From Candidatus Saccharimonadales bacterium (GTDB lineage: Bacteria > Patescibacteriota > Saccharimonadia > Saccharimonadales > JACDFO01), in contig JBBSLJ010000004.1 of assembly GCA_038255465.1 (NCBI GenBank), forward strand, positions 6 through 64,005: a DNA stretch of 64,000 bases, in the 5' to 3' direction. The position numbers and the translations under genes were made by a program. Position 1 is the stretch's first letter, and each line of letters begins with the position of its first letter. The notes under the pieces were generated by a model that saw nothing but the letters and a program-made list of their open reading frames with translations, did not search any database and was not told the origin of the DNA. This document shows positions 6,779 to 60,480 of the stretch, in pieces.

Positions 6779-7303
6779 CTAAATCGGCGATTTTTTAAAG
6801 CCGATTAAGTAGGCAAGGTAGCTAAATAACAGATGGAGTCCGAAGTACAAAATCAGTATTCCGCCCATCAAAATGAAAGGGATGGGCGCGAGCGGATAGA
6901 CAAACAGCAGGCCACCGATGATGTAATCAATCTGGTCAAACGGGAACCAGCTTTTACTTGGTGCGATACTGCGCTGACGCTTAAAAAAACTTTCGACGGC
7001 ATCACCCGTGAGGGCACCCACTCCTAAAACAACGCCAATAAGGAATGTGTACCAGGCGTTAGAAGAATTGGGGACAAACAGATAGCTAACAAGCAGGCTG
7101 GTCGCGCCGCCCATTAATGCACCAGAAATAAATCCGCGCCAGGTTTTGTTGGCTCCAAATATCCGTTTGCCACGGTAGCTTTTGCCAAAGTCCATGGGAG
7201 CGTTAAGCTTGTGCAAGTACGGAATGCGGGAAGCAAACATCGGGCTGAAATTGGCAACCCCGGCAGGCATAAAGAATAGAAATGCTTGTAATAGGAAGTC
7301 CAT
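6779..7303 (-). CDS. carS: CarS-like CTP:lipid-phosphate cytidylyltransferase (archaeal CDP-archaeol synthase family, DUF46)
   Basis: Resembles archaeal CarS over its whole length from memory: PMDFGKSYRGKRIFGANKTWRGFISG, GDAVESFFKRQ, DQIDYIIGG, polytopic; start overlaps the PHP stop (TGATG at 7303). Confidence 0.8.
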   Translation of the reverse strand: MDFLLQAFLFFMPAGVANFSPMFASRIPYLHKLNAPMDFGKSYRGKRIFGANKTWRGFISGALMGGATSLLVSYLFVPNSSNAWYTFLIGVVLGVGALTGDAVESFFKRQRSIAPSKSWFPFDQIDYIIGGLLFVYPLAPIPFILMGGILILYFGLHLLFSYLAYLIGFKKSPI

Positions 7304-7956
7304 CAGCTTCTGGTTACTTTCTTTTTGGCCTTATTAATTTTCGGATATAACAAGCCGCGTATAGTTGGCCGTTTTGCGTGGAGTACGCCGTCCTTAAGTA
7401 ACGGCAAAAGCGTATCGCTTGTCGGAATTTGGGACAGCCCGCTAAAGGTCCGGCCCAGACCGCTTGCGCCGTGTGCGTCGCTGCTGGCCGCCATCACCGT
7501 CTGATTCAGCTTTGCCCATAAAAGTGCCGCCGAGTGTCTATTTTGTAAAAAGGCTCGCCCATTGCAAACTTCTAAAATATCAACTTGGCCTTGAATGAGT
7601 TCAAGCGTCGCGGGGTGCAGGCCTTTCCTGATTGTTTCAAATGGGTGGGGAATATAGACGAGGCCGTTTTGCTCGCGGATGGCGGCAATTGTCTCTTCCG
7701 GGGTTTGGCCGGCTTGAATCGGTGTTTTTAGGAATAGTCCGATAATTTCGCCTAAACTTGTCATAATTTCTTCTCCGACAATAATTCGTTCACCCAATTC
7801 AGTTTGGGCGTGGTTCGCAAAATCTATACGGTTGTGGTCTGTGATGGCAATACAATCCAAAACCCCGGCGTTTAAAATCCGGCGGTACTGCTTGAGGGTA
7901 ATCCCGCCATCGGGCGAGGCAGCCGAATGGGTATGTAAATCAACTCGAAAACTCAC
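7303..7956 (-). CDS. PHP-domain metal-dependent phosphoesterase
   Basis: VDLHTHSAASPDG ... IAITDHN ... PHP motifs; GTG start at 7956 preceded by GAGG (complement of 7964-7967). Confidence 0.85.
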   Translation of the reverse strand: MSFRVDLHTHSAASPDGGITLKQYRRILNAGVLDCIAITDHNRIDFANHAQTELGERIIVGEEIMTSLGEIIGLFLKTPIQAGQTPEETIAAIREQNGLVYIPHPFETIRKGLHPATLELIQGQVDILEVCNGRAFLQNRHSAALLWAKLNQTVMAASSDAHGASGLGRTFSGLSQIPTSDTLLPLLKDGVLHAKRPTIRGLLYPKINKAKKKVTRS

Positions 7957-8110
7957 TTTATGGCCTCACTAAAGGTTGAAAAAGCAAGTGGTGCGTAAGG
8001 TGGGCATTTTCTTGCGCCAAAGCATAACCGTAGTTATGCAGCGAAGCAAAAAATGAGCAACTTGCCGCCAATTGCTTTTGTAAATTAGATGAGGTCATAA
8101 AGTGAGTTTT
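7948..8110. ncRNA. Candidate structured RNA element (unclassified): 21-bp closing helix, 12-bp second helix, three internal hairpins
   Basis: 7948-7968 pairs with 8090-8110 (one G:U); 7980-7991 with 8068-8079; hairpins at 7993-8017, 8022-8039 and 8041-8068; fills the whole gap between two co-oriented genes. Confidence 0.45.
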
Positions 8111-8119
8111 ATGCATGAT

Positions 8120-8794
8120 TTATATCTTCCGGGAGATTTTAATAAGTCGATTAATTGCCGTAAGCCACGAGAGTAGAGCAATAAAAGCAATAGCAATCAC
8201 GAGCCCGTTCATACCAAACAGCAAACCGACCACAAGGGCAAACATGCGAATTTCAAACCTCATAAAACCATCCTGAAACAACCGATTTATTTCGTTTGCC
8301 GTAAGTTTGCTATTGGTAACGGCCGTTTCTCCTTTTGCCTTAACATATGAGACTAAGACGGATCCGCCCGCAGCAGCAACAGTCAGCGCTATAACGTGCT
8401 CGAGCAAGAGTGTCTCCGGCATAAAGAGCTGCTCGGTTGTACGCACATAACGTTCGACAAAATAAAAACTGATACCCATATAGAGCATAATTTCTTTCAT
8501 CCGATCGGTCACTGCATCAAGCAGCATGCCCGCCGATGATGCCCGTTTTTGCAACCGAGCCAGTTCGCCGTCAAGCGTGTCAAACAGTCCAAAAATCACC
8601 AAAAGCAGTGCTGCCAAGGGCAGATAGCCTTTTGCGATTAACAACGCAATCGGTACATGCATGAACAACCCGACGATTGTTACTAGAGATGGGGACAAGT
8701 TGCCGCCCGTAGCCCGATTAAGTCCCTTGGCAATTTGTCGCATAAAAGCCTTAACTATCTCGCGGCATGCATCAAGAAGCTTAGTCATTAACAA
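8120..8794 (-). CDS. CDP-alcohol phosphatidyltransferase
   Basis: Complete family motif DTLDGELARLQKRASSAGMLLDAVTD (D-x2-DG-x2-AR-x8-G-x3-D-x3-D); polytopic. Confidence 0.9.
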   Translation of the reverse strand: MLMTKLLDACREIVKAFMRQIAKGLNRATGGNLSPSLVTIVGLFMHVPIALLIAKGYLPLAALLLVIFGLFDTLDGELARLQKRASSAGMLLDAVTDRMKEIMLYMGISFYFVERYVRTTEQLFMPETLLLEHVIALTVAAAGGSVLVSYVKAKGETAVTNSKLTANEINRLFQDGFMRFEIRMFALVVGLLFGMNGLVIAIAFIALLSWLTAINRLIKISRKI

Positions 8795-58752: not shown

Positions 58753-58955
58753 TGGCTAAGATTTTTAAACACCGTACAGATGTAGCCTACTTTGACTACA
58801 AAGATTTCAAAACCCTACAACGCTATGTAAACGGTTTTGGTCAGATTGAAACCCGCAAAAAAACGGGCCTAAAAGAGCACGAGCAGCGTCGTTTGGCGGT
58901 TGCGGTCAAGCGCGCGCGCCACATCGCATTACTGCCGTTTGTAGCCACTAGCTAA
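58752..58955 (+). CDS. rpsR: Ribosomal protein S18
   Basis: [14 protein letters not shown]...[18 protein letters not shown]; start overlaps the rpsF stop (TAATG). Confidence 0.95.
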
Positions 58956-58958
58956 AAA

Positions 58959-58994
58959 AGGTTTTAGGTTATAGGTGCTAGGTTCTAGAGCGTT
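58959..58994 (+). repeat. Repeat family 2, copy R2
   Basis: AGGTTTTAGGTTATAGGTGCTAGGTTCTAGAGCGTT. Confidence 0.75.
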
Positions 58995-59024
58995 TTTCTA
59001 GAACCTAAGGCCTCGCACCTAGAA
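58972..59024 (+). other. Long stem-loop after rpsR (possible terminator or processing site; no U tract)
   Basis: TAGGTTCTAGA/TCTAGAACCTA (11 bp) extended by TAGGTGC/GCACCTA across a 7-nt bulge. Confidence 0.5.
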
Positions 59025-59115
59025 CCTTCTACGCTTGACGTTAAATAGACGGGAGCGTACTTTAATAGTACAAACAATCTAAGGGACATAGATCCTATAA
59101 GAAAGGGGATGCCAC

Positions 59116-59797: not shown

Positions 59798-60199
59798 ATG
59801 ACAGAAATATCGTTAGCGTTACTTACGCTCCCAGATGGCAGAATTGTTTTTCAAAGACGTGATGCCCGAGCATCTATGAGTCCAAATTTGCTTGGATTTT
59901 TTGGCGGGCATGTTGATGAAGGCGAAACCTTCGACGAAGCGATGAACAGAGAACTTAAAGAAGAAACTTCCCTCGATGTCGATGAGCTTATAATAAGCCA
60001 CATGACTGACTATAAACTTGAAGTACAGCCAGGTAAAACCGTGTCTTTTCATCTTTATGGATCAACTATACCAAATATGGATTTTGAAGTATTTGAAGGA
60101 GATCGGGCTGAAGCTTACCATAGAGAAGAAGCATTGGTACGTGATGATCTTACTCCCTCTGCAAAATACGTTTTAACAAATATATTAGGAGAAAGCTAA
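59798..60199 (+). CDS. NUDIX hydrolase
   Basis: Nudix box GGHVDEGETFDEAMNRELKEETSL; ATG 59798 lies 5 nt after AGAGAGG. Confidence 0.85.
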   Translation: MTEISLALLTLPDGRIVFQRRDARASMSPNLLGFFGGHVDEGETFDEAMNRELKEETSLDVDELIISHMTDYKLEVQPGKTVSFHLYGSTIPNMDFEVFEGDRAEAYHREEALVRDDLTPSAKYVLTNILGES

Positions 60200-60480
60200 T
60201 GGATGAGTTACGAAAAGAAGCAATTAACTTGCGGCAGGTGTTTCGAGACAAGATAGACGATTCTTCCAAGCCAGAAGCGCATGAGCTTGAGAATGCGATT
60301 ACGCGTATAGAAGATGATATCCAGTCAAAAAAGCCGCCACGCAGTATTGAAGACCAGCTCAAGCGTGTTATCCAGTTGCTATCCAGTGGCGACGGTAAGG
60401 GCTTTATGGATGATCGAGATCTGGATGATCTGAAGGACCGGTGTGAAGATATGCGGAATCAAGTACGAAAGTTGATGTAA
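60199..60480 (+). CDS. Hypothetical small helical acidic protein, 93 aa
   Basis: ORF abutting the NUDIX stop; no family recognised. Confidence 0.5.
   Translation: MDELRKEAINLRQVFRDKIDDSSKPEAHELENAITRIEDDIQSKKPPRSIEDQLKRVIQLLSSGDGKGFMDDRDLDDLKDRCEDMRNQVRKLM

Follow-up and report, generated by a model that had tools for sequence, protein, structure and literature searches.

A candidate family of dispersed palindromic repeats with a putative translational relay in Saccharibacteria

The 64,000-nt stretch of contig JBBSLJ010000004.1 from a Candidatus Saccharimonadales bacterium that was analyzed here (the window) contains a 163-nt palindromic element between the gene for a CDP-alcohol phosphatidyltransferase (PT) and that for a PHP-domain protein, both of which are read from the minus strand. 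The proteins of the window have their best matches in metagenome-assembled genomes of Saccharibacteria. Comparative analysis suggests that this element is a copy from a family of ~165-nt palindromic repeats in Saccharibacteria that has apparently gone undescribed, namely a dispersed, non-autonomous repeat that resembles MITEs (transposable elements of miniature size that have inverted repeats), the enterobacterial repetitive intergenic consensus (ERIC) and the Rickettsia palindromic elements (RPEs), and that carries a built-in translational relay. We assign this reading as a whole a probability of roughly 0.7. The element provides the Shine–Dalgarno (SD) sequence and the start codon of the downstream gene from within its own 3′ arm, and is crossed on the coding strand by a stop-free frame of 52 codons. 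To our knowledge, palindromic repeat families are as yet described neither from Saccharibacteria nor from the wider candidate phyla radiation (CPR), and a full-text literature search on repeats and inverted repeats of Saccharibacteria and Patescibacteria found no description of such elements.

The PT–PHP junction and the repeat family

The 163 nt between PT and PHP are a lineage-specific insertion into a junction at which the two genes normally overlap. Through the PHP protein, 160 related loci were gathered, 143 of which contain both genes; PT and PHP overlap or lie no more than 21 nt apart in 139 of these 143, and the spacer in the closest relative (L081, 76% amino acid identity) is 4 nt. 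Apart from one locus with 53 nt, large gaps are confined to three loci, L015 (153 nt), L034 (181 nt) and L019 (91 nt), in each of which a strong hairpin fills the gap. An independent Logan assembly (L161) contains the identical element sequence; exact look-up of the PT protein returned only an identical copy, that in L161, and exact look-up of the PHP protein returned no match. The absence of the element from 139 of 143 orthologous junctions argues that it is not a regulatory element that evolved for this operon.

These copies were reached by several routes. The central 43 nt of the window element match L014 at the junction of the PGI and PIG-L genes (blastn), and a covariance model (CM) built from the window, L014 and L015 finds copies in L027 (between atpC and PGI), L086 (identical to L087; ahead of a DUF1361 gene) and L118 (between divergent argS and PT genes). 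A close homolog of the L118 copy is located after CarS in L012. A nhmmer profile of the gap-free 80-nt core recovers L014, L015, L027, L086, L118 and L012 with E values of 1e-10 to 7e-15. Further copies (L162-L173; Table 1) were reached through homologs of the peptide encoded by the stop-free frame and through their contigs, and CM and nhmmer matches occur in these loci as well. Altogether, copies occupy ~16 distinct junctions in different genomes, the window included, on Saccharibacteria-type contigs. They measure 151-170 nt, mostly 162-170 nt, and stand singly between housekeeping genes, with no link between the element and any particular gene function; two copies in L164 (L164a and L164b) are 2.2 kb apart. 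The family resembles MITEs in that it is short, lacks a transposase and has terminal inverted repeats (TIRs; 21-nt arms with one wobble in the 163-nt window copy), and in that it occurs at many unrelated sites, including filled and empty orthologous sites at PT–PHP and at efp. L027 carries a full copy of subfamily B together with an adjoining fragment (L027:6189-6244) of subfamily-C type, which comprises only the apical hairpin and its flanks, GGAGAGGTAGC-TGTG-GCTACATCGAGGACAGAAAAAC.

The spread of one element over unrelated genes bears on the idea that it is a cis-regulatory RNA, such as a riboswitch, a thermosensor or a protein-binding leader, which evolved in this operon for the control of PHP. 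A buried SD and start codon within a large structured region would suit such an RNA, and the initial annotation had considered that some 120 nt of structure beyond the needs of coupling might respond to a ligand or a protein. However, the same element is found ahead of the unrelated genes dnaA, atpB, gatA, efp and mnmA, it is absent from the 139 orthologous junctions mentioned above, and it folds as a simple rod without a multi-helix junction or a pocket. The Rfam search that had been recommended was also negative: with Rfam 15 the window gave no match at the gathering score, positions 7850-8250 gave only chance-level matches (E above 2), and homologous elements in eight related loci gave no match. 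An operon-specific regulatory RNA is therefore hardly tenable as an explanation.

Fold, start codon and reading frame of the element

The arms of the outer helix are complementary over 21 nt with G7963:T8095 as the sole exception, and the arm 20-mer does not occur a second time in the 64 kb, in which 0.02 chance matches are expected. This helix, a second one inside it (11 of 12 pairs), an apical hairpin of seven base pairs with a tetraloop, the position, on the mRNA, of the GAGG SD and the GUG start codon of PHP within the outer helix's 3′ arm, and the beginning of the 5′ arm 9 nt past the PT stop codon had all been described in the initial annotation and were confirmed. On the mRNA, the SD (7967-7964) is placed 7 nt ahead of the GUG. 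The earlier proposal that three hairpins branch off between the two helices did not survive, as both strands, at minimum energy, fold into a single uninterrupted rod with 7997-8010 paired to 8050-8063, and forcing the proposed hairpin at 7993-8017 costs 4-8 kcal/mol relative to this rod. The minus strand folds with -65.2 kcal/mol (z = -6.8) and the plus strand with -76.3 kcal/mol (z = -9.2), none of 200 shuffles being equally good in either case, and DNA folding parameters give the same picture. The outer arm duplex contributes -26.4 kcal/mol on the minus strand and -30.9 kcal/mol on the plus strand; it consists of 15 + 5 bp and is followed by more helices, which amounts to ~65 bp of near-continuous double-stranded RNA (dsRNA). 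In a terminator scan, neither strand shows a terminator-like site at the element, and most family members have no U tract after the element.

The rod is conserved among relatives. An alignment of seven subfamily-A copies in the orientation of the window plus strand (A7), when analyzed by RNAalifold, yields a rod of 63 pairs, 44 of which show changes on both sides; this also favors the rod over the multi-branch layout. Standard pairs make up 91.9% of cells, compared with 72.6% in shuffles (observed value reached by 0 of 500) and 40-46% in controls with slid partners, and the apical stem (columns 78-83 with 88-93) is 100% paired. The arm sequences have diverged strongly between copies, while the outer 20-26 bp are near perfect within each copy. 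A MAFFT alignment of all subfamilies (A5), in which the arms were misaligned, and an alignment with reverse-strand self-matches (A6) were kept out of these statistics. Weaker complementarity extends outward into native coding sequence (7933-7947 with 8111-8125), where the end of PT, ATATAAATCA, and the PHP codons for VDLH, TGATTTACAT, are paired at 9 of 10 positions; this may be chance or a hint of a target preference.

The downstream start codon and its SD lie within the 3′ arm in all nine subfamily-A junctions that were read. Six copies (window, L014, L162, L163, L164a, L165) end in the motif RTGAGYT, which gives the downstream protein the N-terminus M-S-(S/F/A). How this start arises can be followed at efp, where an empty site in the window is matched by a filled site in L164, a close relative of the window organism as judged by the amino acid identities of FtsK (73%), EF-P (88%) and S18 (92.5%). 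The window efp reads AAGGAGCTCT ATGGCA CTAGGC, with AAGGAG as its SD and a protein that begins with MALGVTDLKKG, whereas in L164 the sequence AAGGAGAAATAA ATGGCA is followed by a 167-nt element ending in CAATGAGTTCA and then by TTAGGA, so that efp starts anew at ATGAGTTCA and its protein is MSSLGVTDLKKG (beginning with MSSLGV). Thus, the native SD and start codon now open the frame that crosses the element, and the element adds an SD, an ATG and two codons. The notion that the outer arms are inverted copies of the target was rejected on the same evidence, because the native SD and ATGGCA upstream of the L164 element are unlike either arm.

The same logic explains the N-terminus of PHP. Among 132 PHP orthologs, 119 start with M-x-K/R-[VI]DLH, that is, three residues before [VI]DLH, and the MSFRVDLH of the window corresponds to a native M-F-R with an extra Ser from the GTGAGT of the element, one residue longer than usual. 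Two side observations concern such junctions. In the window, a 93-aa open reading frame (ORF) at 60199-60480 lies between the NUDIX gene and efp, with its ATG overlapping the NUDIX stop; L164 lacks this ORF and has the element in its place. In L127 (1044-1052; also L153:1850 and L078:3001), PHP starts with ATGAGCTCT, which equals the 3′-terminal motif of subfamily A, followed by GTGTACAAA (MSS + VYK), and L127 has no element there; this may be the footprint of a lost element or chance.

The frame that runs from 8116 to 7958 on the minus strand fills the PT–PHP gap exactly and had been missed in the initial annotation. Its ATG is 3 nt past the PT stop codon, at the position expected for the native PHP start, and its UAA ends 1 nt ahead of the GUG of PHP. 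The bottom strand is open across the element in 7/7 copies from the nucleotide search and the top strand in 0/7; the chance of an open frame as estimated from composition is 12-55% per copy, with a product of 5e-4 that is weakened as a figure by the shared ancestry of the copies. No homolog of the window and L014 peptides came out of a word-index search. By contrast, when the window mini-ORF was compared by phmmer with 1.84 billion representatives and a profile of eight sequences was then searched, 18 ORFs were obtained; their length is 47-74 aa, in most cases 53-57 aa, and each has the motif FFASxxSYGYALSQEN that is also present in the window and L014 frames. A weak match of the core CGYQFCFGQNNAHATH to P0001 (979 aa, 16 repeats with a 59-aa period) was treated as spurious, this being a tandem-repeat protein that is probably translated satellite DNA and unrelated.

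The mini-ORF is tightly joined to its neighbors on both sides. On the downstream side, its stop codon adjoins or overlaps the next start in the window and in L014, L015, L162-L165, L167, L168, L171 and L172; on the upstream side, its own start adjoins or overlaps the preceding stop in the window and in L014, L015, L162, L164, L165, L171 and L173. For example, L162 has an ATGA overlap at each end; L164a combines a gap of 0 nt with an ATGA overlap; L015, L167 and L168 have a TAATG stop/start overlap; and in L171 the mini-ORF overlaps its neighbors at both ends. The mini-ORF is on the strand of the flanking genes in 14 copies and on the opposite strand in two (L164b and the P0004 locus), and two cases are ambiguous. 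In 14 of 16 copies that could be oriented, one strand has a stop-free frame of ~54 codons that runs from the upstream stop, or from right beside it, to the downstream start codon.

It might be argued that the gap is simply a genuine gene for a 52-aa protein with an FFASxxSYGYALSQEN core, in which case the palindromy would be incidental. The 18 homologous ORFs with their common motif and tight coupling to neighbors, together with one AGT/TCA serine switch between the window and L014, are in line with this. However, the differences between the window and L014 show no excess at third codon positions (7/10/9), nor does the entropy by codon position (0.79/0.62/0.85 for 31 codons in nine copies). 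The termini shift frame among copies, and the frames that are open differ in subfamilies B and C (L118 and L012 among the copies). The homologs are all singleton clusters without a Pfam domain, the mini-ORF itself matches no Pfam family, and 8116..7958 is missing from the gene calls of the Logan assembly. Moreover, a DNA that is ~92% self-complementary with compensatory changes is not the product of protein constraint. A protein gene is thus very improbable, and the frame does not appear to be that of a conserved protein.

The arrangement as a whole suggests the following model for the dispersed repeat with a relay. The element would have inserted just after the native PHP start codon, and its outer helix would lock the new SD (GAGG) and the GUG at 7956, both derived from the 3′ arm, in the mRNA. 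Ribosomes that finish PT would restart 3 nt downstream at the native AUG (8116) and read the 52 stop-free codons through the element, which would unwind the hairpin; they would then terminate at the UAA (7960-7958) and re-initiate at the GUG 1 nt further on, and the peptide would be a by-product. Since the start is buried in the 3′ arm throughout the family, translational coupling is the most plausible route to PHP expression, and expression of PHP is probably coupled obligatorily to the translation of PT via the relay. The layout matches that of coupling by SD sequestration, in that SD and start codon are in a helix and the stop of an upstream ORF is within reach of the ribosome. The initial annotation had already proposed coupling mediated by structure, and the buried SD and start hold family-wide; the likely route is not only the ribosome terminating on PT that it named, but one through the 52-codon relay frame.

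Table 1. Features of the window locus and positions of family copies reached through peptide homologs
Feature	Position	Strand	Remarks
PT, upstream gene	8120-8794	minus	stop 8122-8120; C-terminus complete vs orthologs
PHP-domain protein, downstream gene	7303-7956	minus	GUG start 7956-7954; N-terminus MSFRVDLH
CarS-like gene	6779-7303	minus	
Palindromic element, outer stem to outer stem, 163 nt	7948-8110		rod-like hairpin; CM, nhmmer core profile, alignment A7
Outer helix, 5′ arm on mRNA	8090-8110	minus	carries anti-SD CCUC and start-codon complement CAC
Outer helix, 3′ arm on mRNA	7948-7968	minus	SD, mini-ORF stop, PHP start, codons AGU and UUU
Apical hairpin, 7-bp stem, 4-nt loop	8022-8039		with flanks (~7992-8069) the conserved family core
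Second helix, left side	7980-7991		partner 8068-8079, 11/12 paired
Second helix, right side	8068-8079		partner 7980-7991
Stop-free mini-ORF (putative relay), 52 codons + stop	7958-8116	minus	ATG 8116-8114; UAA 7960-7958
Copy L162			between gatC and gatA
Copy L163			ahead of nadD-like gene
Copy L164a			between NUDIX gene and efp
Copy L164b (second, diverged copy)			between rpsF and ssb, just after rpsF stop
Copy L165			ahead of macB-like gene
Copy L167			ahead of mnmA
Copies L168, L169			immediately ahead of dnaA
Copies L170, L171			between atpI and atpB
Copy L172			downstream of obg, ahead of a gene without assigned identity
Copy L173			between two genes without assigned identity

Strand asymmetry and the weighing of the alternatives

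When the copies are oriented by homology of their core and not by folding energy, the top strand, that is, the counterpart of the plus strand of the window, has the better fold in 13/13 copies, by a margin of 2-32 kcal/mol; of two copies found later, one folds better on the top strand and one is tied (14 of 15 in all). Alignment of the left arm with the reverse complement of the right arm gives 53 G:T against 17 A:C on the top strand (p = 2e-5), and A7 has 45 G:U against 8 A:C. In the window, 7963:8095 pairs as G:U on the plus strand but is mismatched as A:C on the minus strand. U.G pairs are kept at A7 columns 47:122, 51:119 and 38:131, and on the top strand the internal loops that adjoin the apical hairpin are rich in purines. 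The initial annotation had seen the strand evidence as conflicting, with wobble pairs in favor of the plus strand and a UNCG-class tetraloop in favor of the minus strand. The first part is consistent across the family; the loop is not conserved (UACG, UAAG, UUCA, UACU and others). The asymmetry is greatest in L164b, whose top strand is the sense strand of the mRNA, and thus belongs to the element and not to its mRNA context. Replication-strand bias was rejected as a cause of the G:U asymmetry, as the orientations relative to GC skew are mixed (3 to 4).

These findings could mean that the product of the element is a structured plus-strand RNA of ~165 nt, or a single-stranded DNA (ssDNA) hairpin, antisense to PT–PHP, and that any effect on the operon is secondary. 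It might be a mobile or multi-copy non-coding RNA with its rod and apical hairpin bound by a protein, or the strand-specific hairpin intermediate of an ssDNA-type transposition. The consistently better top-strand fold, the predominance of G:T over A:C in an alignment blind to orientation, the U.G pairs at fixed columns, the purine-rich loops, the intrinsic nature of the asymmetry and the failure of replication bias to explain it are what such a product would lead one to expect, and the earlier suggestion of an independent non-coding RNA fits better pairing on the plus strand. On the other hand, neither a conserved promoter nor a conserved terminator was seen on the top strand, the element has no Rfam match and no transposase is nearby, and many of the G:U cells are inherited from common ancestors and are not independent. 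Avoidance of stop codons may also contribute, because a T-to-C change on the bottom strand removes stops and the resulting C.A corresponds to a G.T on the top strand. We consider a plus-strand product unlikely. The asymmetry may stem from an RNA, from an ssDNA form or in part from stop avoidance on the other strand. A promoter-like site at 7758-7785 (+), with TTGTCA, a 16-nt spacer and AATAAT (10/12 matches, within chance expectation), is located antisense inside PHP ~165 nt upstream of the element and is the place from which a plus-strand transcript would most obviously come.

The ~65 bp of near-continuous dsRNA bring to mind, alternatively, that the hairpin has been co-opted as a site of mRNA processing or stability, at which RNase III would uncouple the PT and PHP mRNAs or which would act as a 3′ stabilizer. 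RNase III cleavage at the TIRs of MITEs and RNase E effects of ERIC are documented (PMC10969869; PMC3184786), and L164b lies in the strong-hairpin orientation after the rpsF stop, with a TATAAT-like box and the SD of ssb downstream. However, in nearly all copies inside operons the mRNA-sense strand has the weaker fold, a cut within the 3′ arm would remove the SD and start from PHP, and the architecture of the mini-ORF would be left unexplained. A processing site is accordingly a distinctly poor candidate.

Several observations weigh against a mobile repeat with a relay. Copy numbers seem low: the 64-kb window holds a single copy even when the CM filters are switched off, and neither an arm search allowing three mismatches nor a scan for long inverted repeats found another in it. 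L164a and L164b align at only ~60% by reading of the alignment, which does not support recent transposition, and among L162-L173 only L164 could be placed taxonomically. No consistent target-site direct repeat was found at the window, L014, L164a and L162 junctions, and a TA that adjoins the ends in L027, L086 and L012 could as well be the palindrome extending further. Nor did a transposase or an autonomous element turn up whose ends match; an IS1595 fragment in L164 was rejected as a partner, having no ends in common with the element, and a search of viral contigs with subfamily-C ends gave no match. The arms are ~92% paired at ~30-40% sequence divergence between copies, and pairing that is kept despite such divergence points to selection on the structure or to conversion between arms, and not to the plain decay of a selfish insert. 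Finally, pairing is better on the strand opposite the mini-ORF, a bias that the relay model does not predict and that is left unexplained.

It is tempting to speculate, although we hold this extension to be doubtful, that the layout is a selected design, by which a "self-healing" mobile element can settle in the first codons of essential genes of very compact genomes. The parts of this design would be a frame free of stops on one strand, an SD and a start codon in the 3′ arm, and a stop that overlaps the new start. Expression of dnaA, atpB, gatA, efp and PHP would then be restored by translation-driven unwinding with termination and reinitiation, and the better-pairing opposite strand would be the working RNA of the element, or its ssDNA hairpin, for spread or maintenance. 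If this holds, such an element would be a translational counterpart of what introns and inteins achieve by splicing.

The reading as a dispersed repeat with a relay, for its part, has several implications. Gaps of ~160 nt with hypothetical 54-aa genes in Saccharibacteria would become recognizable as repeat elements, and starts behind them, such as the GUG at 7956 with its MSF..., would be understood as derived from the element. It suggests how a selfish insert may survive between overlapping essential genes in a genome of ~1 Mb, namely by replacing the translational signals that it displaces instead of occupying spare intergenic DNA. The strong asymmetry that diverged copies have kept points, as yet unexplained, to selection on a form with a single strand, and could lead to a new RNA or to a new mobility mechanism based on ssDNA.

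Comparison with known elements and further hairpins

Long RNA stem-loops, co-transcription with host genes, ORFs fused to host genes and effects of RNase III or RNase E are known from bacterial MITE, ERIC, Correia and RPE repeats (PMC3184786; PMC10969869). As a palindromic repeat that is found in a reduced genome and has a peptide that recurs, RPE is the nearest analog. RPEs are palindromes of ~105-150 bp in reduced, host-dependent genomes, contain an open frame with a "conserved peptide," and are tolerated inside or beside essential genes since translation runs through them (PMC10969869; PMC3184786). The family described here shares with them an open frame with a recurring peptide within a palindromic repeat. 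However, RPEs are in-frame inserts within coding sequences and become part of the protein, whereas the peptide of the present family, apart from the dubious P0001, occurs only in free-standing ORFs of 47-74 aa and never in a longer host protein. Its length (163 or 167 nt, neither of them a multiple of 3) shifts the frame, and, unlike RPE, it lets the host gene start anew from an SD and a start codon that it brings along. The two have no sequence similarity and belong to different phyla.

ERIC resembles the window family in being an imperfect palindrome of comparable length (127 bp) that lies in operons, in intergenic regions that are transcribed, and in being present or absent at orthologous sites between species. 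Its central inverted repeat is reportedly conserved and its pattern of evolution is said to suggest structure in a single strand, findings attributed to Hulton in 1991 and to Wilson and Sharp in 2006. Nevertheless, ERIC is confined to Enterobacteriaceae or Vibrio, has no sequence relation to the window family and is not reported to provide a start codon, an SD or a gap-filling ORF, as the latter does. Effects of ERIC on mRNA that depend on orientation are attributed to De Gregorio 2005 in the account given by PMC3184786. The Correia (nemis) elements of Neisseria are 100-160 bp long, with TIRs of ~26 bp, are co-transcribed with host genes and form a TIR hairpin that is cut by RNase III (PMC10969869). 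Both families supply neighboring genes with expression signals, which in Correia are promoters and sites for integration host factor (IHF) and not translation signals. Furthermore, Correia elements have TA target duplications and hundreds of near-identical copies, whereas the copies of the window family are few and strongly diverged and no duplication could be defined.

The window junction is comparable to coupling by SD sequestration in that the SD and start codon are in a helix that can be opened only by a ribosome translating upstream, and to termination-reinitiation in that stop and start are 1 nt apart, or overlap as ATGA or TAATG in other copies. In classical coupling, however, the upstream ORF is a real gene; here it would be a 52-codon frame on an inserted repeat. 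TIGR arrays, which occur in Patescibacteria and phages as tandem box C/D units beside a Nop-domain Tas gene (PMC12045711), were rejected as relatives, as the copies are solitary, without an array or a Tas-like neighbor. Inspection by eye also excluded attC sites, as there are no RYYYAAC/GTTRRRY ends and no integrase or cassette array.

Other hairpins were encountered in the course of the comparison. At the PT–PHP junction of other species, the inserts at L034:2814-2994 (181 nt) and L019:568-658 (91 nt) do not share the core of the window family; read by eye, each has an anti-SD in its 5′ arm and a stop-free frame across the gap, which in L019 starts at TAGTG and ends at TAATG. They may be further families of the same kind. 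Long hairpins with perfect outer stems of 15-34 bp and spans of 100-170 nt, unrelated in sequence to the window family, are also present in Saccharibacteria loci (L066:4691-4792, L043:6255-6357, L029:2198-2306, L123:4213-4318, L129:1977-2103, L145:5974-6086, L039:2219-2382, L136:1923-2087 and L086:4391-4529), so that rod-like palindromic inserts seem to be common in this phylum. In the window itself, an imperfect hairpin with 32-nt arms (58958-59028) follows an rpsR-like gene (stop 58955) without a U tract. It gave a weak CM match (58921-59068, E = 0.28), lacks the family core and was set aside as unrelated; it may be a terminator or a stabilizer. A perfect 39-bp hairpin at L096:3600-3680 lies exactly at a contig end and is probably a fold-back artifact of assembly or amplification.

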